A DNA stretch of 64,000 nucleotides, taken from the sequence record NC_054902.1; one strand, 5' to 3'. The notes beneath the pieces were generated by a model. The model saw only the letters and a list, made by a program, of their open reading frames with translations. It did no database searches and had not been told where the DNA came from. A program made the position numbers and the translations under genes. Position 1 is the stretch's first letter, and every line of letters starts with the position of its first letter. The DNA comes from Enterobacteria phage Aplg8. Shown here piece by piece: positions 8,100 through 20,858 of this stretch.

Positions 8100-10277
8100 T
8101 TAGGCCGCAAGGGCCTTCATAGTTTTAGCGATTTGGGAAACTTCATCATCACTTAAAGAACTGCGATATCCGATGAAGTCGGAAACAATACGGAATTTCT
8201 TGGTAAACTCAGCAACCATTTTATCACTGTTTTTTGAAGCATTATTTGATAATACATCAAAAAGATTAGTTACTGTCCAGATGTCATGACCGATGGTATC
8301 TTTTCCACCATTAAAATATACACCGCGCAATGAACTAACTATATTAGCGAGTCGTGTATATTCTTCAGAAACTTCATCTGTACTGAAGTACTTCATCATA
8401 AAATCTAGTTCAGGATACTTGATAATTTTATCAATATATCGTTGAGCTGAACTTGAATAACCTACATACTTATCATAATCTACATCATCAAAAGCATCTA
8501 CATATAAATCACGCAAAGCTTCAAAAATACATTGGCACTGACCAAGCTCTTTTACCTTTTTCTGCAAAAGCGGACGAATAACATAAAATTCATTAATGCC
8601 AATAAGATTAGCCATACGAATCAAAATATTCATAGATGGATGACAAAGTGATGTAGTACCATCCATAGAGAAAATATCAGAACGATGCATATACGCTACA
8701 TAACCAGTAATTTCATCTGCTTCTGACGTAAGTGTAAATAGTTCCTCTTTTTCCCAGCGCCCGTCTTTAATTTCAAACTTAAATGCTGTAGCAGCTTTAG
8801 GACGAGGAGCTTTACTTTTAACTACCTTTGGAATATAGCTTTTAACTAAAGCTTCAATTTCTGACAAATAATGAATGTTAACTTCATCACTTTCAAACAT
8901 CGCCATAATATCAGGAAGTAAATCAATCTGCGATTCTACTTCTGGGTTAATAAACAAAAGGCGTTCGTTATGATGAATATTCAAAGTGTTATTAAATTCA
9001 CTATCATCTAACGCATGTGCTAATCCACGAACAATATTAACACGATTTTTAATATTATCAATAACGATATTAATTTTTGTTGTATTAATACCAAACAGAC
9101 GATAACTTGATGCAACGGCTGAAGTTTCATGACTTTGCTTAATGCGCTTCAGTCGAGGGTCAAGATTTACTTCATACACAACTCCTGCATTGCATAACTT
9201 ACTGTCAGGTTCAAACATGCTCTGCATCTTTTTATATGACAGATTTTTAGTCGTGAATTTGACTGAATTACTAATCATATAATCTCGAGCAGAATACCCC
9301 ATCTTCATTAATTCACGATATGTGTGACGAGGAGATGTAGATTCTTTAAATCGTTTTACATCTTCATTAAATGCTTTCTCACTAAGCTCTTTAACTCGTT
9401 CAATAATATTTTTACGAGTGCGATCATCTAATGAAAGAGCTTCACGTGATGGAGCAATATCAAGTGAACCCATTGGAAATTTAATGTAATTCACTTCATT
9501 ACGAATGCTTAGCCAGTTACGGTCTCTAATAACACCATCGATAGGATAAACAATACCACCATAGATAGCATATAATCCACCACGATCAGGCCAGTATCTT
9601 TCTGGATTTACACCGTAATAGTCATCAAAATCCGGAAAATAGTCAATTTCACGGTCAAGACCATTAATGATAGCCAAATCTTTGAACGGCCGCATGATAT
9701 AAGAAACTTCATAAGCAAAGTTTCTAAAGTCTTTTTCTTCAACTGGAACTACGATTTCAATACCAGTTTTATCATCTGGACCCATTTCTTTTACGAATGT
9801 AGGTTTAATCTGTGGTCCATCGCCATCCATGTAAGCTACATAACCACGAATTTCACCTTTATGATACGAAGTAATACTAAATGTATCAGTATAACTAAAC
9901 GGAGATTTAGAACCTAAACCAAACCCGCCAATAAAGTCATTAGATTCAGCCTTAGATGAACTGAAGTATGAATTATACAGACCAGGAGAATTATCATCAC
10001 CCTGAATATCAAAATCACTCATACCCGGACCAAAATCTCGACAAACAAATCGTGGATCTAATCGTCCTGGAACTTGAATGATAAATTTTTCAGGATTTCC
10101 ATTAAGTGCATGAGCATCAATCATGTTAGTAATCAATTCACGGACTACTGCGCGAATCTTGTTTGTATACAAATCAGATGACAGAATTTTAAATACTTTA
10201 GGATTTGCTGCGATGCTAAATGCTTTTGATTTAGAACCATTGCCAAGAATTGTTTCTTTTTCAGTGGTGATAATCAT
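8100..10277 (-). CDS. rIIA: rIIA protein
   Basis: 725 aa (T4 rIIA length); HATPase-like N-terminal domain; 11-nt rIIA-rIIB junction. Confidence 0.92.
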
Positions 10278-10516: not shown

Positions 10517-10546
10517 ATTATACCACATCCTTGTGGTAAAGTAAAC
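10517..10546 (-). promoter_or_regulatory. early promoter (GTTTAC / TATAAT)
   Basis: minus-strand GTTTACTTTACCACAAGGATGTGGTATAAT; -35 at 10546..10541, -10 at 10522..10517. Confidence 0.7.
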
Positions 10547-12366
10547 TACTGGCTCATCCATTCTTTGCGAAGGTCAGCATTATCTCCCATGAGCATTTCA
10601 AAAAGCTCTTTCCAGTTCTCAGGAAGTTTAACAACATCATATACTGGATTTTGAATCATCTCACGATATTCAGATTTTTCCAAAGAGCCAAGTCCTTTAA
10701 TATAACGGATGCTATGTTTAGGTAGAGCATCTTTGGCACTCTCATATTCAGCGACTGTATAAAACCATTCTTGTTTTTTACCGACCTGAGCGATGATTAC
10801 AGGAGTTTTGACAAAGCGAATTCGTCCTTGCTCAAACAATTCTGGCCAATTACTAAAAAACCCGAGCAGAGAAGGATAAATGCTTCCTAGACCATCATGG
10901 TCAGCATCAGTCATAATAGCAATATTGCGATAATTCAAGTTTTCAGCTTTTTCACCAAGAACTAGACCAGTGATTGCGCAAATATCAAATAGTTCTTTGT
11001 TTTTAAGCATATCGGCATATGACATACCCCAGCTATTAAGAACTTTACCGCGCAATGGATAACCACCATGAAGTTCTTTATCGCGAACATCAATAAGATA
11101 TCCGATAGCTGAATCACCCTCAGTCAAGAACAATGTAGTGTCAGCATCTTTACCGCAAAGATTCGCTTTGATATGTTTGTGAACCTTAGCTTTAGAAGCC
11201 TTTTTAGCTGCTTTAGTTTCTGCTGCTTTTTCTGCCGCCAATTTACGAGCCAAAGCAGCTTCAATAATCGGCATTAAAATTGCTTCATTATTTAGAATAG
11301 CGCGTGAAATCTTTTTAGCATCAAGTTGAATATGACTACGGATTTCACCAAATGGAGAAGTCAAACGCTCTTTAGTTTGAGAATCAAATCGCATGTTTTT
11401 CATATCACGAACAAACATAACGATAGTCAAACATTCTTTGACACGCGCTTTGGTTACATCAATTTTGAACTTACGTTTGATTTGTGGAATAAGGTCTTCA
11501 CAAATATCATCCATAACACAGTCAATGTGATGGCCACCATTCTTAGTATGAATGTTATTGACGTATGTTAATTGACGAAAACCATCCGGTGAACGACCAA
11601 CCGCAATAGAACAATTTTCTTGTTCTTGAACGATAGCATGTTCATCATATTGGCGTGCGTATTTCTTAAAATTACCCTGAACCTTTTTACCATTAAAGGT
11701 AAATTGAATATCAGGATAAACAACAGCAAGTGTTTGGAGACGATCTAGTGTAATGTCAAGATAAACTTGGGACAGCTCATTAGTTTCAAATGACATAAAA
11801 TCAGGAATGAAAGTAACACGAGTTCCTTTCCATTTTCCAGGAATATCTTCCCATGATTTATTTTCCATGCCATTTGAGCAACGAACTACAATATTATTTT
11901 GACCATCGCCAGTTTCACCGACAAACATCACAGAAAAAATGTTTGTCAAACTAGAACCAACACCGTTCATACCGCCAGTGACGCGTTCTTTATCATCACC
12001 GAAGTTACCACCTGCTTTTGGAATAGTCCATGCGGCAACAGGACCAGGAATTTCTTCACCGGTAGGTGTTTTAACCATCGCTTGTGGAATACCGCGACCG
12101 TTATCTTCAACTGTTACTTGATTGTTTTTAATAGTAACATTAATTTTATTTGCGAATTTAAACTTAGTACGAATACCTTCATCTACTGAGTTATCGATAA
12201 TTTCATCAATAAGCTTAACAAGACCAGGTACATACTGAACACTTTCCCATTTACCAAACAGAAAGCGCTCATGCATTTCATTAGCAGAAGAGCCAATGTA
12301 CATGCCACTACGCTTTTTGATATGTTCAATATCGCTCAGAATTTTAATTTCATTCTTAATCATCAC
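10546..12366 (-). CDS. 39: DNA topoisomerase II large subunit (GyrB-like), uninterrupted gene 39 (39+60 fused)
   Basis: 606 aa; N-terminal GHKL ATPase matches T4 gp39, C-terminal 120 aa match T4 gp60 (...NVAIMTDADHDGLGSIYPSLLGFFSNWPELF...) in one frame. Confidence 0.93.
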   Translation of the reverse strand: MMIKNEIKILSDIEHIKKRSGMYIGSSANEMHERFLFGKWESVQYVPGLVKLIDEIIDNSVDEGIRTKFKFANKINVTIKNNQVTVEDNGRGIPQAMVKTPTGEEIPGPVAAWTIPKAGGNFGDDKERVTGGMNGVGSSLTNIFSVMFVGETGDGQNNIVVRCSNGMENKSWEDIPGKWKGTRVTFIPDFMSFETNELSQVYLDITLDRLQTLAVVYPDIQFTFNGKKVQGNFKKYARQYDEHAIVQEQENCSIAVGRSPDGFRQLTYVNNIHTKNGGHHIDCVMDDICEDLIPQIKRKFKIDVTKARVKECLTIVMFVRDMKNMRFDSQTKERLTSPFGEIRSHIQLDAKKISRAILNNEAILMPIIEAALARKLAAEKAAETKAAKKASKAKVHKHIKANLCGKDADTTLFLTEGDSAIGYLIDVRDKELHGGYPLRGKVLNSWGMSYADMLKNKELFDICAITGLVLGEKAENLNYRNIAIMTDADHDGLGSIYPSLLGFFSNWPELFEQGRIRFVKTPVIIAQVGKKQEWFYTVAEYESAKDALPKHSIRYIKGLGSLEKSEYREMIQNPVYDVVKLPENWKELFEMLMGDNADLRKEWMSQ

Positions 12367-14711: not shown

Positions 14712-15185
14712 TTAAGCTTTACGAGGAGAAGCATAACGAGTGATTTCAGATTCTTCAACAACCCGGAAGTCACCTAAAAATACAATATTGTATAGCTTTT
14801 TACCGTCTTCAATCCATTGGTCTGTGATGAAGCCACACATCCTATCAGTTTTACTTGGACCAGCGAAATCATCAATATAATCGAATTCTTCATCAGTTAC
14901 AAATTCAACGCCTTTACACAACGCCCATTTAAATTGTGCATTAGACTCAGTGGATTCAACTTCTTCAACAGAAGCAAAATGAGAGCTAACACGAGTTTCC
15001 AGAAATTTAGGACTTACGTAAGCGTACTGAGTTTCAGTTTTTCCAGAACTAGGAATGATTCGAACTTTAACTTCTATAACACGACCAGTACCATTAGTAC
15101 GAAGTCCTACCACTTCAACTAGACGACCTGCAGCTTTAGAACGAGATGCAGACGATACACGCTTAATTTCACCGATAGTAATCAT
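14712..15185 (-). CDS. hypothetical protein, paralogue family member
   Basis: 157 aa; C-terminal motif FITDQWIEDGKKLYNIVFLGDFRVV. Confidence 0.6.
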   Translation of the reverse strand: MITIGEIKRVSSASRSKAAGRLVEVVGLRTNGTGRVIEVKVRIIPSSGKTETQYAYVSPKFLETRVSSHFASVEEVESTESNAQFKWALCKGVEFVTDEEFDYIDDFAGPSKTDRMCGFITDQWIEDGKKLYNIVFLGDFRVVEESEITRYASPRKA

Positions 15186-15257: not shown

Positions 15258-15752
15258 TTAATTAAGGATATTAATTACTGCACTACGTGGAACTACACTA
15301 AAATCACCTGCATGAACAACGTTCAGAAGTTCAACACCGTCTTCAATCCACTGATCAGTTACCCATCCACTCACTGGACCTGCGAACGGACGTCGAATTG
15401 AAACAGCTTTACACAACAAATCAGTAGGCTCAATAGGCTTAACCAGAGTACCGTACATACAAGCGATATCCATATCAATACAGATGTCTTTAACGGGTTC
15501 TACTTCTTCAATCAACAGTTCAAAGTCGGTGCTTGGAAGGGCGGTAGTAGAAATTGTACCGTATGAATTTTTAATTTCTAAGAATAACCAAGGGCCTTCA
15601 GCTTGTTTGATGAAGTTAACAATAGTGAAACTATTACCTTGAGTGGCGCCTAAAATTTCACAAAACTTTTCATAAGCTCGCACTGAAGCACCATACCAGT
15701 TGATTTGCTTTTCGTCTTTCAGGATGTAAGTAGCTGTAGTACTGATATTCAT
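15258..15752 (-). CDS. hypothetical protein, paralogue family member (MotB position)
   Basis: 164 aa; C-terminal motif WVTDQWIEDGVELLNVVHAGDFSVVP. Confidence 0.6.
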   Translation of the reverse strand: MNISTTATYILKDEKQINWYGASVRAYEKFCEILGATQGNSFTIVNFIKQAEGPWLFLEIKNSYGTISTTALPSTDFELLIEEVEPVKDICIDMDIACMYGTLVKPIEPTDLLCKAVSIRRPFAGPVSGWVTDQWIEDGVELLNVVHAGDFSVVPRSAVINILN

Positions 15753-15764
15753 GATGTTTTCCCC

Positions 15765-16268
15765 TTAATCTAAGGTAATAAAGCCTTTTAATTCGGCATG
15801 TGACTTGCGGAACATTACTTGATGACCGCCAATGATAACTTGGTCATCAGGTACTTCGTATACAGCGAGATAAAATCCTTTAGAAGCTAATTCTTCACGC
15901 TCTTCTCGTGTGAACCATCTCATCATATCATATTCGCTAGCGAAAGCAAAATGATAAAGAGCTATAAACCATCCTGGAATATAGTGATCTACGCCTACAT
16001 ATTCTTCTTTCTCAAAATTAGTATTAATTGCTATATTAGCATTTTTAACTAATAATTTGTCTTCATGCGGCACAGGAATTCTTTTATTATCATTACTATG
16101 ATGCATAAAATTAGGTCTGTCATAACCTACGTGTAATAACCACTCTTCACTCCATGAATCTATTATACTCCTGTACGGAGTTATTTGAACACAAAGATCT
16201 CGACGTATTGTTATAGCATCTTCATAATTAAGAATACTAAATGATGATTCAACACGATAAATTTTCAT
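15765..16268 (-). CDS. hypothetical protein
   Basis: 167 aa from MKIYRVESSF; track ORF N-terminus is upstream leader. Confidence 0.5.
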   Translation of the reverse strand: MKIYRVESSFSILNYEDAITIRRDLCVQITPYRSIIDSWSEEWLLHVGYDRPNFMHHSNDNKRIPVPHEDKLLVKNANIAINTNFEKEEYVGVDHYIPGWFIALYHFAFASEYDMMRWFTREEREELASKGFYLAVYEVPDDQVIIGGHQVMFRKSHAELKGFITLD

Positions 16269-16331
16269 TTTATTATCCTCAGTAGCTATGGTGTTATAAT
16301 ACCACAACTAACCGAGGAAGTAAACAACTTT

Positions 16332-17015
16332 TTATCGTTTTGTTGGAAGAGACAGAGGATCGCACTCTTCCTCTGACGGAGCATCTTCAAGACCCATAGC
16401 GTATCGCAAAGCATACTTCATCATCAGGATGTCTTTCGCACAGTCATGAATAGAATCATGCGCAACGAATCCATCTAAGGTTCCCTTTGGAAGAGGACAT
16501 GTTGTCATATCACGAACAAGCAGAAGTGCTTCAATTCTGGTACGAATATCACGCTGATTCCAGAATTTACATGGTTCTAACTTAAATGTGTCAAGCTCAT
16601 TCTCAGAAACACCATTAAGACGTTGAATATCACGAATGAGATCGACTAAAATTGGAAAATCAAACGACATTCCACGGCACCAGCCTTGAGATTTCCAAGG
16701 ATCGATATTATGTGCATTGATGTAATCATTAAATTTTGCAATACCGTCGATAGTGCTTACATCTTCATCGGATGGTGCAATATTTTTTCGAGCTTCAGGA
16801 GATTGATTTTTCCACCATTCGATAGTGCTTTTAGTAAAAAGACGATGTCCTTTTTGGCTTTTTAAATCAAATTTGATTTTAATGCCACGTGAAACTAATT
16901 CATCAAACGTTTCAACTACTTCTGGGTTAGGGTCAAAAGCAATTACAGCCAAATCAATAACAGCTGCTTTTTCACCGCTTCCCATTGTTTCAAAATCTAT
17001 AATAAAATCAAACAT
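16332..17015 (-). CDS. dexA: DexA exonuclease A (DnaQ-like 3'-5' exonuclease)
   Basis: 227 aa (T4 DexA length); DEDD-type exonuclease motifs (FDFETMG..., HDSIHDCAKD); position next to dda. Confidence 0.85.
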   Translation of the reverse strand: MFDFIIDFETMGSGEKAAVIDLAVIAFDPNPEVVETFDELVSRGIKIKFDLKSQKGHRLFTKSTIEWWKNQSPEARKNIAPSDEDVSTIDGIAKFNDYINAHNIDPWKSQGWCRGMSFDFPILVDLIRDIQRLNGVSENELDTFKLEPCKFWNQRDIRTRIEALLLVRDMTTCPLPKGTLDGFVAHDSIHDCAKDILMMKYALRYAMGLEDAPSEEECDPLSLPTKR

Positions 17016-17257
17016 TAAATTTTCCTTGCTAAATCGCGAATTTGACCTACAGTATAATCTTGGATATAAACTTTATTAATAGGCTCATCAATAAATTTTG
17101 CCATAGATTCAATATCTTTTTGCATCTCTTCAAGACTGTATATTATCTTTAAAGCTTTTTCGCGAATAGTAATATTTTCAGGACCAGAATTTTTCTCAAT
17201 GACAGCTTTAACATTTGTCATAAGAGATTTAAACTGCTGCAAACTTAATTCAATCAT
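17015..17257 (-). CDS. small hypothetical protein (tandem paralogue a)
   Basis: 80 aa from MIELSLQQF; start overlaps stop of upstream ORF (ATGATTGA). Confidence 0.45.
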   Translation of the reverse strand: MIELSLQQFKSLMTNVKAVIEKNSGPENITIREKALKIIYSLEEMQKDIESMAKFIDEPINKVYIQDYTVGQIRDLARKI

Positions 17258-17510
17258 TAATAACCGCCTTATAAAGATGGCTAATTTCACCTAAAATGTA
17301 ATCACTGATTGTAACAGTTTTTACTTCACCACAAAAGAATTCTAACGCAATTAAATCTCGTTCAATTTCTTCTAATTGAAGCATTAACTTGCCAGATTCA
17401 ATTTTTACATTTCTACGATTTTTACTATAAGCTATTTCATAAATTTCGCTCACTTTATCTTGAAGCAGATAAAACTGGTCTTTAGTTATTTCCACGAATA
17501 GCTTCCTCAA
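17250..17510 (-). CDS. small hypothetical protein (tandem paralogue b)
   Basis: 86 aa; shares QF...LEE...DY..G.I pattern with ORF a. Confidence 0.45.
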   Translation of the reverse strand: MRKLFVEITKDQFYLLQDKVSEIYEIAYSKNRRNVKIESGKLMLQLEEIERDLIALEFFCGEVKTVTISDYILGEISHLYKAVIND

Positions 17511-17742
17511 ATTTAATTAGTAATTTACAGACACTTTCATCTAGTGTAATTACCGTATCTGTATTACTGTGATATGATTGTTTTTCAATTCGTTTAATTG
17601 CTAATATAGTATCACTTATAAGATAAAGCTTATGAAGGAGCTCAGCTCCTGTTACCATAACATCGAGATTATCTTGCTTATTAGTATGCTTCCTTATACC
17701 ATCTATTAGACGATTTAAATATTTTGAATTGATGTTAATCAT
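17482..17742 (-). CDS. small hypothetical protein
   Basis: 86-aa ORF between dda and dexA. Confidence 0.45.
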   Translation of the reverse strand: MININSKYLNRLIDGIRKHTNKQDNLDVMVTGAELLHKLYLISDTILAIKRIEKQSYHSNTDTVITLDESVCKLLIKFEEAIRGNN

Positions 17743-17748
17743 ATAGCC

Positions 17749-19068
17749 TCACACATAAAACACATCATAACGACCACGTGTTACACCAACATAAAGAAGT
17801 TGTTGAGCTAGTTCAGCATCTGCATAATGAATACAAGGCGTATAAATGAAAGCACGGTCTACAGACATACCCTGAGCTTTATGGAATGTTGATGCAGGAA
17901 GTGCTTTCACTTTACTAAACTGTGATTTAGCATCCCAAAAATCACTCCACGGAGCCTTTCCGCCTTTATTCCAATTTTTATAAGTTTCTGCCGTTTTACC
18001 TAAAAACAGGTTAAACTTATATAGCTCTTCATCAGATGAAATTATTTTAATCTTTTCACGATAATATTCATCATCGCCGTAAGTTTCTACTGTTAAATCC
18101 CAATGACGAATTAAGTATTCTCCAGGAACACCACGAGCTTTAACAAACGTTGATGTATACTCTGCTTCTATAATACGAACTAATTGTCCATTATTAAAAA
18201 TAATTTCTGATACAGGCTTTCCATCAATTTTATATGTTTTAATTAATGGTTCCTGCATTACAATAATTTCACCAACAATAAAATCTTTATCAGTTTCAAA
18301 AATCTTTTTACGAATAATATTGTTTAACTTGTCAACAGATTTATTCGTAAATGCCATTACGCGATTTTCAAACAAATCATCTAGTGATTTGACGATTGAA
18401 AAATAATTTACCATAAAATCGCGTAAAGCGGTATCACCAGTAAATCCACGTACTCCATGCCCGTCAACAACTTTATCATAAATCCACTTACCGTTACGAA
18501 CGTCAGTAGCTACATCAATAATAGGAGCATTACTGCGTTTAACTTCAGTGAGTTCACACTGATAAAAATCTTTATGCGTAAAGAATGGACTGATATAAGC
18601 AGTATTTTCTCCTGGGTCAACAGGTCTAATTTGCTTATTATCACCTATTCCAATTATAGTACACCACGGCGGGATAGTTGAAAGCAGAATTTTAAATAGC
18701 TTTCTATCATACATTGACACTTCATCGCAGATTAATACTCTGCATTTAGCTAAATCTGGTACTTCCTTCTGCTCAAAGAGGACATTTTCTTCATATGTTA
18801 CCGGGTTAATTTTGAGAATACTGTGAATAGTACTCGCTTCTTTCCCTGATAGTTTTGAAAGAATCTTTTTAGCTGCATGAGTAGGAGCTGCTAAAATAAT
18901 GCCAGTTTCGCCCGTAGATATTAAGGCTTCAATGATGAACTTAGTAAGAGTAGTCTTACCAGTACCAGCAGGTCCATTAATAGTTACATGATGTTTCTTT
19001 TCTTTAATAGCCCTCATAACAATGTTAAAGGCATTTTTCTGGCCTTCAGTCAAATCATCAAATGTCAT
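17749..19068 (-). CDS. dda: Dda DNA helicase (SF1B)
   Basis: 439 aa (T4 Dda length); Walker A GPAGTGKT; helicase motifs. Confidence 0.92.
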   Translation of the reverse strand: MTFDDLTEGQKNAFNIVMRAIKEKKHHVTINGPAGTGKTTLTKFIIEALISTGETGIILAAPTHAAKKILSKLSGKEASTIHSILKINPVTYEENVLFEQKEVPDLAKCRVLICDEVSMYDRKLFKILLSTIPPWCTIIGIGDNKQIRPVDPGENTAYISPFFTHKDFYQCELTEVKRSNAPIIDVATDVRNGKWIYDKVVDGHGVRGFTGDTALRDFMVNYFSIVKSLDDLFENRVMAFTNKSVDKLNNIIRKKIFETDKDFIVGEIIVMQEPLIKTYKIDGKPVSEIIFNNGQLVRIIEAEYTSTFVKARGVPGEYLIRHWDLTVETYGDDEYYREKIKIISSDEELYKFNLFLGKTAETYKNWNKGGKAPWSDFWDAKSQFSKVKALPASTFHKAQGMSVDRAFIYTPCIHYADAELAQQLLYVGVTRGRYDVFYV

Positions 19069-19376
19069 CGTAAATTCCCTGCAATTGGTATACTAACAAT
19101 ACGCCCAGTATCTAAAATTCGCCGATATAATCTTTGTGTGTCTACATCAGGCTTAACATGTTTAACTTCTATTTTATTAAACCAAAACTTGCGTGGAGTC
19201 TCAACTAATCTTGGAATTCCCTTACCTAAAGCTAATCGATACTGCTCTTTAAGAGTAGTAAATACTTTATCAGCAATATTCCATTCAAAAAATACAGCAG
19301 GACGATGTTCATCAAGCGGAACTGGCGCCGTAAATCCGTCTTTGTCTCGGTAAACTATCGCATATACATAAACCAT
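19065..19376 (-). CDS. hypothetical protein (dda.1 position)
   Basis: 103-aa ORF with 4-nt overlap on dda. Confidence 0.55.
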   Translation of the reverse strand: MVYVYAIVYRDKDGFTAPVPLDEHRPAVFFEWNIADKVFTTLKEQYRLALGKGIPRLVETPRKFWFNKIEVKHVKPDVDTQRLYRRILDTGRIVSIPIAGNLR

Positions 19377-19377
19377 A

Positions 19378-20133
19378 TTATCCTCGGATAAGTTTAAAAA
19401 TTGAACAATTTAGCGGGTATCCTCTTTTCAGTTTAAGTTTATCAATAAAAGACAAGTTTTGATACCGCTCTACACCTTGAATAATTTTATCACACATATC
19501 ATATTGCATTTCTGCTTCTGACAACTTTTTCACAATTTTCCAATCCGAGCCTTTAAGAAGAACGTTCAGTTTAACAACTTCAGCGCCTTCTGCTATGCGA
19601 GAACCATCAATACGAGCTTTAAGTGCTATAATTCTTAGCTTAATGTCAGAGGTCTGTTTTGATTTAGAAAGCTGAGAAATGTGTTCAATTCGGTTTTCAC
19701 GTTTTTTCTGTATAGCTTTAATTTGATTATAAGTCTTTTTGATTTTAGCCCATTTCTTTTCATCTAAATTTAGTTTATGAACTTTTTTCGCAGATGAACG
19801 ACCAATTCGCAAAGCAAACAAATCACGTTTTTCAATTAACTCCTCTAAAGTATAATCAGAACGAAATGTATTATACTTTTTCTTTACTGCAATAACATTC
19901 CCTTTAATGTATCCAACGTTATTATCAAAACGTTCTAATGATAATTTCTCTCCTTCAATACGATTATCAAAAGGTTCTCCCGAGTAAGCACAAACTTTTT
20001 GATCTAAAATGTTCTTAATGTAATTGAAGTCTAAGTTAAAATCTTTAGAACGTCTTTTTGCAGATGCCTGAGTATGCTCTAAACGACGTTTAATTTTACG
20101 AATTTGGTTATTAGACATATTATGCAGTTTCAT
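19378..20133 (-). CDS. srd: Srd-like protein (sigma-factor-like)
   Basis: 251 aa, very basic; size and position after dda.1 match T4 srd. Confidence 0.6.
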   Translation of the reverse strand: MKLHNMSNNQIRKIKRRLEHTQASAKRRSKDFNLDFNYIKNILDQKVCAYSGEPFDNRIEGEKLSLERFDNNVGYIKGNVIAVKKKYNTFRSDYTLEELIEKRDLFALRIGRSSAKKVHKLNLDEKKWAKIKKTYNQIKAIQKKRENRIEHISQLSKSKQTSDIKLRIIALKARIDGSRIAEGAEVVKLNVLLKGSDWKIVKKLSEAEMQYDMCDKIIQGVERYQNLSFIDKLKLKRGYPLNCSIFKLIRG

Positions 20134-20255
20134 ATTTTTATCACATCTTACGGACGATTGACTACTATACTATAACATTTTTACTTTAACTTGTAAACAA
20201 CTTTATGTAAAAATGCTTTAAAAATTTCATGGTATAATGAATCTAAGTCCTTCCA

Positions 20256-20858
20256 TTATAGATTAAATCCTTCAAAATCAAGAGTATAGATAGTGTATGT
20301 TGAATACTTTTTGTACTCATATCTATCTGCAATTTTAAATACACTTCCAGCTGGTATCATTACTTCTTGTTCATCTGAAACTAATTCCATATTACGATAA
20401 CGATGGCTATCCGGAAACTTAAAGTTTGGATTGTATTCTTTACAGCGTAGAGCTTTTATAGCATACTCCTGGAAATTGAATACCATAGGAGCTTTGAATT
20501 CAAAAATAACTTGTGTGTTGTATTCTAATCCAGAAGCAAAATGTAGAGCTATATTTTTATCATATGAAGCTGATACTACTTTATCAAATGTAATAATATC
20601 AATTCCTTGATTTAACACCTGCTTAGTCTCAACTGGAACACCTCTCCAAAGAGGTTTATCGTTTGGAACCAAACGAGATTTGATTATTTCATTTAACCAA
20701 GTATGGTCATCTGGCTTATTAGTAATACAATGAATTAAAAGTTCAATTTCAGATAAATTAAACCCTTCAGAAAGTAATTCTTCACGAATAGAAGCACGCA
20801 CCGATGCATCCATTGATTTTATTTTAAAATCTTTTAGTTGCATTACTGAGTATTTCAT
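20256..20858 (-). CDS. modA: ModA ADP-ribosyltransferase
   Basis: 200 aa; tandem with 207-aa paralogue; position srd-modA-modB as in T4. Confidence 0.7.
   Translation of the reverse strand: MKYSVMQLKDFKIKSMDASVRASIREELLSEGFNLSEIELLIHCITNKPDDHTWLNEIIKSRLVPNDKPLWRGVPVETKQVLNQGIDIITFDKVVSASYDKNIALHFASGLEYNTQVIFEFKAPMVFNFQEYAIKALRCKEYNPNFKFPDSHRYRNMELVSDEQEVMIPAGSVFKIADRYEYKKYSTYTIYTLDFEGFNL

Follow-up and report, generated by a model that had tools for sequence, protein, structure and literature searches.

Three small genes between dda and dexA of a Tequatrovirus: dexA.1 and dexA.2 as in T4, with a probable third paralogue

In phage T4, two small genes are annotated between dda and dexA, namely dexA.1 (NP_049630, 80 aa; UniProt P32285) and dexA.2 (NP_049631, 81 aa; UniProt P39418). 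Both products were assigned to the early-RNA/middle-protein class by time-resolved omics (PMC9697503 supplement), and peptides of DexA.2 were found by mass spectrometry (PMC10097602). One transcription start site serves dda.1 through dexA.1 (bioRxiv 10.1101/2024.04.04.588121); a single dda-dexA.1 transcription unit is established in T4 only. In CRISPRi-ART, dexA.1 and dexA.2 were scored as 'Not Fit', i.e. knockdown was costless (PMC11879866 supplement), and both genes are dispensable under laboratory conditions. Only two T4 proteins were recovered as cGAS conjugates made by CBASS Cap2; DexA.2 is one of them, with the conjugate found at K5 (PMC10097602). A literature search on the proteins of this interval (hereafter the slot) retrieved no functional study, and the PHROGs class of their families is unknown function.

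The interval described here was taken from a 64,000-nt stretch of Enterobacteria phage Aplg8 (NC_054902.1; the window). Its source is a Tequatrovirus (T4-like phage): phage DalCa is 99% identical at the nucleotide level, and 505 T4-like records match. A preliminary description had placed three overlapping ORFs of 80-86 codons between dexA and dda and had considered them possibly lineage-specific. ORF1 to ORF3 are ordinary, previously annotated T4-family genes, ORF3 as hypothetical protein. The yield is modest, in that two annotated T4 genes and one commonly annotated neighbour were re-identified. Taken as a whole, the identity and gene-family statements for the three ORFs are given a probability of about 0.85.

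Arrangement and coding status of the interval

Coordinates, starts and lengths are listed in Table 1.

Table 1. Features of the dda-dexA slot and its flanks, in positions of the window
Feature	Positions	Strand	Start and length, or basis
dexA (exonuclease A), downstream flank of slot	16332-17015	minus	ORF list and T4 annotation
ORF1 (dexA.1 orthologue)	17015-17257	minus	ATG start, 80 aa
ORF2 (dexA.2 orthologue)	17250-17495	minus	GTG start, 81 aa
ORF3 (probable third divergent paralogue; phrog_4967; RB14ncORF015c)	17482-17742	minus	ATG start, 86 aa
Segment of 232 nt missing from T4, T2, RB55 and IME537	17517-17748	minus	multiple and pairwise alignment
dda (DNA helicase), upstream flank of slot	17749-19068	minus	ORF list and T4 annotation

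The dda stop is separated by 6 nt from the ORF3 ATG and is spanned by a GAGG. ORF3 and ORF2 share 14 nt (17482-17495), the ORF2 stop lies over the ORF1 start in an out-of-frame overlap of 8 nt (ATGATTGA, 17250-17257) that was exactly as previously claimed, and the ORF1 stop shares 1 nt with the dexA start (TAATG at 17015). GAGGAAG precedes the GTG start of ORF2, and the same GTG and GAGGAAG are present in T4. Longer starts from the ORF list were rejected for ORF1 (GTG at 17290, 91 aa), where the T4 annotation and alignment with the single-copy homologues favoured ATG, and for ORF2 (TTG at 17510, 86 aa), where the T4 annotation and homologue alignments favoured GTG. All three ORFs are real protein-coding genes, coupled in translation and part of a gene string from dda to dexA, and their products are soluble proteins of about 9-10 kDa each. 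A promoter and terminator scan of 16200-20600 gave no excess over shuffles and nothing noteworthy inside ORF1-ORF3.

Pooled dN/dS was 0.235 for ORF1, 0.116 for ORF2 and 0.175 for ORF3, which indicates that purifying selection acts on all three. Variable sites of ORF1 and ORF2 were concentrated at codon position 3; those of ORF3 were distributed 9/2/10 over codon positions 1/2/3, with positions 1 and 3 about equal. Phage sb1 was left out of the selection analysis; with dda in three pieces and ORF3 cut short by a premature stop, its record is suspected of poor sequence quality. Homologues of the three ORFs numbered in the hundreds in database searches. The proposal that three real small ORFs tile the interval was borne out by confirmed coordinates, purifying selection and detection of the T4 orthologues of two of them. 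Evidence of translation was sought and is present for T4 DexA.1 and DexA.2, the counterparts of ORF1 and ORF2; for ORF3, none was found.

It is highly improbable that any of the three ORFs is not a gene but an open frame arisen by chance in AT-rich DNA. Such an origin would fit their shortness, the want of a functional assignment and the lack of a fitness effect upon knockdown of T4 dexA.1 and dexA.2, but it conflicts with the purifying selection on all three, with the maintenance of the family across genera and with the confident predicted folds; for ORF1 and ORF2 it is effectively refuted by the detection of their T4 orthologues as proteins. Even less credit is given to programmed frameshifting at the overlaps, by which a DexA.2-DexA.1 fusion would be made. 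The phrog_1700 profile indeed spans 160 positions, its first half corresponding to ORF2 (E=4.2e-49) and its second half to ORF1 (E=4.8e-42), and a 159-aa fused protein is annotated in phage ime09. However, this sole fusion stems from a 1-nt deletion just before the stop (GGTT-TTAATG), which may be a sequencing error, and the slippery heptamer is absent at ATTAATGATTGA, on which grounds a programmed ribosomal frameshift pair was rejected. Furthermore, no other protein of ~160 aa was present in 115 family clusters, overlaps of the ATGA type are the standard arrangement for termination-reinitiation, and in T4 two separate proteins are annotated, of which DexA.2, as detected, is reported at 9.5 kDa, matching the unfused protein (PMC10097602).

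Gene family of the three ORFs

The preliminary description had doubted whether T4 has ORFs at this place, and had named known, annotated T4 ORFs as the finding that would count against it. For ORF1 and ORF2 this is what was found: dexA.1 and dexA.2 are annotated at the exact position, with 71/80 identical residues between ORF1 and DexA.1 (about 89%) and 89% protein identity between ORF2 and DexA.2. By sequence comparison, ORF1 and ORF2 are orthologues of dexA.1 and dexA.2 and ancient tandem paralogues of one family (PF26837, phrog_1700). They align with each other over the full length (BLASTP E=1e-7, 25% identity), and Q7, F8, L11, L41, E43, D47, V61, D65, Y66, G69, I71 and L74 are invariant among 22 family members, so that the paralogue-like residue spacing described before for the first two ORFs was recovered as 12 invariant columns. 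Precomputed PF26837 tags were carried by DexA.1-type 80-aa clusters and by cluster representatives with 88-96% identity to ORF2; a local Pfam scan, in a copy of which the PF26837 model is not part, gave no match for ORF1 or ORF2. ORF2 was also matched by the phrog_5263 profile (E=3.1e-8). In Dhakavirus Bp7, the slot is occupied by a single 79-aa gene which is homologous to ORF1 and ORF2 alike.

AlphaFold models were obtained with pLDDT 94 for DexA.2 (ORF2) and pLDDT 85 for ORF3. The order of elements was E2-4, H5-24, H28-55, E60-62, H65-79 in DexA.2 and E2-5, H6-21, H26-52, E64-67, H69-84 in ORF3. Both proteins are thus predicted to follow the order strand-helix-helix-strand-helix, in which a very small sheet of two strands clips a three-helix bundle.

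ORF3 is probably a third, highly diverged paralogue of this superfamily, the copy number of the slot having changed by tandem duplication and deletion. Its full-length, collinear match to the phrog_5263 profile (E=1.8e-5) was lost with reversed ORF3 and with six shuffled versions used as controls, and the same profile matches Bp7 gp116 (4.7e-4) and the slot protein of CC31 (3.2e-28). The alternative is an independent small gene, unrelated to DexA.1 and DexA.2 and inserted beside dda, whose three-helix bundle is coincidental. Such bundles can converge, and several sequence comparisons speak for this alternative: BLASTP found no similarity between ORF3 and DexA.1/DexA.2; hhalign of ORF3 was not significant with either the DexA family (probability 0.2%, E=0.27) or the CC31 family (E=0.017), the profiles being very shallow (Neff about 1.1); and the score of ORF3 with the own superfamily HMM (4.9 bits) was equalled by 73/2000 shuffles (p about 0.04), which is unconvincing alone. 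A word-seeded search with ORF3 gave just 4 near-identical clusters. An exhaustive phmmer search against 1.84 billion representatives essentially returned the own cluster of ORF3, where the PF26837 tag is absent, plus two long multi-stretch proteins that were taken as spurious. A reverse Foldseek search likewise had no ORF3 homologue among its top 50. Against an unrelated origin stand, besides the controlled phrog_5263 match, the length, element order and slot that ORF3 has in common with DexA.2, and its structural neighbours, a set of slot proteins that DexA.2 has as well. In BFVD these were a DexA.2 homologue and slot proteins from further T4-like phages (CC31 slot protein, TM 0.72/0.77; DexA.2 homologue, TM 0.69/0.73), and 6 of the 7 best non-self neighbours of ORF3 were also in the top 14 of DexA.2. 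An unrelated ORF3 is accordingly regarded as unlikely.

ORF3 is not peculiar to the lineage of the present phage. It was found at >=80% identity (i.e. at least 80%) in 307 phage records by tblastn and occurs in some 60% of the Tequatrovirus records, invariably under the product name "hypothetical protein"; the phrog_4967 profile matches it at E=8.4e-59. In RB14 and RB51, the gene is already annotated as 'ncORF'. T4, T2 and RB55 lack ORF3 and have the 232-bp gap in common. In multiple alignment, the distance from dda stop to dexA ATG was 733 nt here vs 501 nt in T4, T2, RB55 and IME537, and the gap boundaries are uncertain by about 3 nt owing to TGA/TAA microhomology. T4 retains a relic of 12 codons that overlaps the dda stop, in which ATG-ATT is joined in frame to the final 10 codons of ORF3 and its stop codon (MIKFEEAIRGNN and stop). 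Because this relic is in frame, the T4 state is read as a deletion, and the 21-bp dda-dexA.2 spacer of T4 is most simply explained as the scar left by loss of ORF3. Of the lineage specificity initially considered, only the absence of ORF3 from T4 was retained, given that ORF1 and ORF2 are T4 genes and that ORF3 is so widely distributed. The synteny check against T4 and T2 that had been proposed gave the same division, with T4 counterparts for ORF1 and ORF2 and with ORF3 missing from both phages.

Product names and possible roles

Scans of all three proteins with local copies of Pfam, NCBIfam and PADLOC gave only sub-threshold noise; the sole PADLOC match was a sub-threshold DndD fragment, and no characterised defence or anti-defence family was hit. 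Sequence-profile searches of the PDB, run with each of the two family alignments, yielded nothing meaningful, and homology of the slot proteins to enzymes or defence-related proteins was not found in these searches. Two product names in circulation were rejected. 'Dextranase', the RefSeq name of DexA.2, is at odds with an 81-aa all-helical protein lacking an above-threshold Pfam or NCBIfam glycosidase match, and was probably derived from the gene symbol 'dexA'. 'Exonuclease', used for DexA.1 and DexA.2 in many GenBank records, is carried over from neighbouring dexA; no nuclease match (e.g. DEDD/DnaQ-like) was obtained, and the predicted structure is a three-helix bundle. Both names are unsupported for 80-aa helical proteins, are probably annotation errors and should not be propagated.

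The slot proteins may be small non-enzymatic proteins, without a catalytic motif, that act by partner binding. As a tentative proposal, they would most likely serve as accessory modulators of host takeover or counter-defence, and not as essential replication factors; individual paralogues may recognise different targets or target variants. This proposal is drawn from laboratory dispensability, variable copy number, fast divergence and host-modulating neighbours (srd, modA/B, motB). A partner-binding or counter-defence mechanism is the weakest step of the present account, held with less than even confidence on circumstantial features. As an expressed and conserved family, the slot proteins are reasonable, though not outstanding, candidates for accessory-gene screens.

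A somewhat less favoured possibility is that the slot proteins serve Dda and/or DexA as accessory subunits or as regulators, kept in fixed proportion by translational coupling. A role tied to one of these two enzymes would fit the deep conservation of the slot at least as well as partner binding or counter-defence does: the family is invariably situated between dda and dexA (T4, Dhakavirus, Karamvirus CC31), its start and stop codons overlap or almost abut those of dda and dexA, and in T4 the slot genes are on one transcript with dda (bioRxiv 10.1101/2024.04.04.588121). Acinetobacter phage Acj9, to which slot conservation possibly reaches, could be added, as it has two small slot ORFs (71 and 92 aa) whose lengths fit BFVD entries of similar predicted fold. 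On the other hand, dda and dexA are adjacent in RB69 with no intervening gene, copies vary from 0 to 3, T4 lost ORF3 yet kept dda and dexA, and coupling is unspecific, since tight packing and overlaps are usual throughout T4-type genomes. A role as Dda or DexA cofactor is for now rated as rather doubtful.

More speculative still, and improbable on present evidence, is the view of the slot proteins as one fast-evolving superfamily, possibly Straboviridae-wide, that engages a host surveillance or defence component. If true, an arms race would lie behind the copy number of 0-3 and the hypervariable surface positions, and the DexA.2-cGAS conjugate would mark a specific CBASS encounter (as trigger, decoy or inhibitor) and not an abundance artefact. 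K5 of DexA.2 adjoins the invariant QF motif. Residues 6-7 of DexA.1 are an example of hypervariable surface positions.

Comparison with T4 and other T4-like phages

With respect to T4 DexA.1 and DexA.2, ORF1 and ORF2 are alike in position, strand, overlaps and the GTG start of dexA.2. Nothing essential differs; the few substitutions lie mainly in helix 1 and in the loop between helix 1 and helix 2. ORF3 corresponds to RB14ncORF015c, RB51 ncORF017c and the phrog_4967 gene, with 92-100% identity across the 307 records. Unlike ORF3 here, the RB14 copy is frameshifted through an 8-bp duplication, and in T2 and RB55, as in T4, only the 12-codon relic is left.

Across T4-like phages, the slot contains no gene in RB69, one in Dhakavirus, one in Karamvirus, two in T4 and three here. 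It is a clean example of copy turnover (0, 1, 2 or 3) in a hyperplastic region. The lone gene in the slot of Karamvirus, CC31p016 (80 aa, phrog_5263), carries PF26837; ORF2 and ORF3 each match the profile of its family, and in structure its BFVD model comes close to both the DexA.2 and the ORF3 model. It differs from the slot proteins described here by a sequence identity of <25% and by its single copy vs three. Generic small three-helix-bundle binder proteins of phages, and designed three-helix bundles in the PDB, have no detectable homology to the slot proteins, and function is therefore not transferable from them. Compared with these, pairing of an N-terminal strand with the strand before helix 3 is peculiar to the slot family.

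The dexA-dda interval and the identity of ORF1 and ORF2

By its sequence, the window was assigned to a T4-like phage of the genus Tequatrovirus; in megablast searches, nucleotides 16900-17850 matched 505 phage records and were 99.1% identical to Escherichia phage DalCa. Three small ORFs fill the interval between dexA and dda (hereafter the slot) with overlaps, exactly as the preliminary description had it. The dda stop codon, spanned by GAGG, is followed after 6 nt by the ATG of ORF3. ORF3 overlaps ORF2 by 14 nt, GAGGAAG lies upstream of the ORF2 start, and the ORF2/ORF1 and ORF1/dexA overlaps comprise 8 nt (ATGATTGA) and 1 nt (TAATG), respectively. Longer forms from a mechanical ORF list were rejected for ORF1 (GTG at 17290), since T4 and single-copy homologues have the shorter start, and for ORF2 (TTG at 17510), since T4 dexA.2 uses the same GTG and single-copy homologues agree.

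Positions of the slot genes and of neighbouring ORFs in the window
Feature	Position	Strand	Start	Length (aa)	Remark
rIIA-sized ORF	8100-10277			725	
606-aa ORF	10546-12366	minus		606	directly after rIIA-sized ORF
157-aa ORF	14712-15185	minus		157	downstream of dexA
164-aa ORF	15258-15752	minus		164	downstream of dexA
dexA	16332-17015	minus			downstream flank of slot
ORF1	17015-17257	minus	ATG	80	
ORF2	17250-17495	minus	GTG	81	
ORF3	17482-17742	minus	ATG	86	
dda	17749-19068	minus			upstream flank of slot

ORF1 was identical to T4 DexA.1 at 71/80 residues and ORF2 was 89% identical to T4 DexA.2; on these matches, both were identified as the known T4 genes dexA.1 and dexA.2. Whether T4 has ORFs in the slot had been doubted, but its record (NC_000866) annotates two of the three between dexA and dda (dexA.1, 8908-9150, 80 aa; dexA.2, 9143-9388, 81 aa), and the three-ORF finding is already known in substance. 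DexA.1-type genes were found in 478 Tequatrovirus-level records. The RefSeq product name "dextranase" for DexA.2 (T4 NP_049631) had no support in Pfam/NCBIfam scans or in the predicted fold; neither domain scans nor the model supported "exonuclease", used in many GenBank records for both 80-aa helical proteins. Either the gene symbol or the adjacent gene is the probable source of these names.

ORF1 and ORF2 aligned end to end with 25% identity (BLASTP E = 1e-7), and the QF ... L.E ... DY..G.I spacing that had suggested paralogy coincides with invariant columns in an alignment of 22 family members (Q7, F8, L11, L41, E43, D47, V61, D65, Y66, G69, I71, L74). Searching 5.8 billion proteins with word seeds, we recovered 115 DexA-family clusters, all 115 with precomputed Pfam PF26837; the Pfam scan of the ORF proteins was empty because the scanned model set did not contain PF26837. 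In phage ime09 (L015 664-1143), a 1-nt deletion joins DexA.2 and DexA.1 into a 159-aa ORF annotated "dexA.1", which explains both this entry and the 160-position phrog_1700 profile. A programmed frameshift fusion was rejected, as there was no slippery site and no other fused member among the 115 clusters.

Pooled Nei-Gojobori estimates were obtained from an alignment of the slot from 14 phages. dN/dS was 0.235 for ORF1 (n = 13 sequences), 0.116 for ORF2 (n = 12) and 0.175 for ORF3 (n = 8); the first, second and third codon positions had 10, 6 and 21 variable sites in ORF1, 8, 4 and 23 in ORF2, and 9, 2 and 10 in ORF3. Published expression evidence covers T4 DexA.1 and DexA.2 only, and no translation data were found for ORF3. 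Both T4 proteins fall into an early-RNA/middle-protein class in a time-resolved transcriptome and proteome (PMC9697503 supplement), and mass spectrometry identified 9.5-kDa DexA.2 that CBASS Cap2 had conjugated to cGAS at K5 (PMC10097602). ORF2 has the same calculated mass (9.5 kDa) and conserves K5. T4 dda.1-dda-dexA.2-dexA.1 apparently has one transcription start site, upstream of dda.1 (bioRxiv 10.1101/2024.04.04.588121), and both dexA.1 and dexA.2 were "Not Fit", i.e. dispensable on laboratory E. coli, in CRISPRi-ART knockdown (PMC11879866 supplement).

DexA.1 residues 6-7 (ORF1 codons 6-7, 17236-17242, minus strand), directly before the invariant QF, are strikingly polymorphic. Either L or W occupies residue 6. 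At residue 7, 48 cluster representatives have H, Q, Y or C, and phage IME537 has W. The C-terminal half is almost invariant.

Relation of ORF3 to DexA.1 and DexA.2

ORF3 was found by tblastn in 307 phage records at >=80% identity. Of the suggestion that the ORFs are lineage-specific, only the lack of a T4 counterpart for ORF3 stands, given this distribution and the presence of ORF1 and ORF2 in T4. ORF3 has its own PHROG family (phrog_4967) and is labelled hypothetical protein nearly everywhere; in RB14 and RB51 it was named "ncORF" years ago. In GiZh (L014 663-915) it is intact but lacks annotation, and in RB14 (L011 ~920-970) an 8-bp duplication (AAATATTT) shifts its frame. In the sb1 record (L006), ORF3 is cut short by a premature stop and dda is fragmented, which suggests that its quality is probably poor.

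No BLASTP similarity was seen between ORF3 and ORF1 or ORF2. Alignment by hhalign was weak with both the DexA family (E = 0.27) and the CC31 family (E = 0.017), an HMM built from both families gave only 4.9 bits, equalled by 73/2000 shuffles, and exhaustive phmmer against 1.84 billion representatives returned only ORF3's own cluster. Three observations speak for homology. The phrog_5263 profile matched ORF3 over its full length (E = 1.8e-5), as well as ORF2 (3.1e-8), gp116 of Dhakavirus (4.7e-4) and CC31p016, the slot protein of Karamvirus (3.2e-28); reversed ORF3 and six shuffles gave no match. AlphaFold models of DexA.2 (E2-4, H5-24, H28-55, E60-62, H65-79; pLDDT 94) and ORF3 (E2-5, H6-21, H26-52, E64-67, H69-84; pLDDT 85) have the same element order. 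Top non-self BFVD neighbours of ORF3 were 76-92-aa proteins of other T4-like phages, including the CC31 slot protein (TM 0.72/0.77) and a DexA.2 homologue (TM 0.69/0.73, probability 1.0). Six of the seven best recurred in the top 14 of the DexA.2 model, with the caveat that this reverse search had no ORF3 homologue in its top 50. We consider ORF3 a divergent third paralogue, with a probability of roughly 0.75.

Copy number of slot genes

The number of slot genes differs among the phages checked: none in RB69 (Mosigvirus), one in Bp7 and UP19 (Dhakavirus; closest to DexA.1) and in CC31 (Karamvirus), two in T4, T2, RB55 and IME537, and three in the window phage and ~60% of Tequatroviruses. Acinetobacter phage Acj9, which belongs to another subfamily (Twarogvirinae; L018 12781-13274, minus strand), has two small ORFs of 71 and 92 aa there, without sequence match to phrog_5263. 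Their lengths match BFVD entries E5EPF5 and E5EPF6, weaker structural neighbours of the DexA.2 model, which hints at a possible link.

All four two-gene phages share an identical 232-bp gap, bordered by TGA/T(A/G)A microhomology, and in T4 only 21 bp separate dexA.2 from dda. T4 retains a 12-codon remnant, ATG ATT AAA TTT GAG GAA GCT ATT CGT GGA AAT AAC TAA (MIKFEEAIRGNN*; NC_000866 9375-9413, L001 4376-4414, minus strand), in which the first two ORF3 codons are fused in frame to the last ten and the stop. Its ATG overlaps the dda stop, and the ten C-terminal residues are part of helix 3 in the ORF3 model. Because of this in-frame relic, deletion in the T4 lineage is more parsimonious than insertion elsewhere, and most simply explains why T4 is missing ORF3. 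ORF3 presence does not follow DexA.2 alleles (GiZh and RB7 combine ORF3 with T2-type DexA.2), which indicates recombinational mosaicism in the region.

Possible roles and neighbouring genes

The three proteins are soluble (9-10 kDa, pI 4.8 to 7.9), and no transmembrane segment or catalytic motif was seen in them. Pfam, NCBIfam and PADLOC gave sub-threshold noise only, PDB sequence-profile searches found nothing, all relevant PHROGs are classed as unknown function, and no functional study of slot proteins was found in the literature. Binding to a partner would be the mode of action of such proteins, and two readings of similar, modest probability compete. One, which we rate slightly below the other, takes them as cofactors for Dda or DexA, or as regulators of these enzymes; the translational coupling and the deeply conserved slot would suit it. 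We lean, tentatively, towards accessory modulators of host takeover or counter-defence, because the slot genes combine dispensability, copy-number turnover and rapid divergence with a conserved fold, because their neighbours srd, modA, modB and motB are host-modulating, and because polymorphism gathers at few positions, e.g. DexA.1 residue 7.

A C-terminal motif of 42 residues, FAGP...TDQWIEDG...GDF.VV, is common to the adjacent 157- and 164-aa ORFs (BLASTP E = 7e-12), which are a second tandem paralogue pair. They occupy the position of T4 motB and motB.1. The 606-aa ORF has the same length as gp39 of RB69, where the large subunit of topoisomerase II is unsplit; for this reason the window phage, judged from length and position only, probably lacks the gene 60/mobA split of T4.
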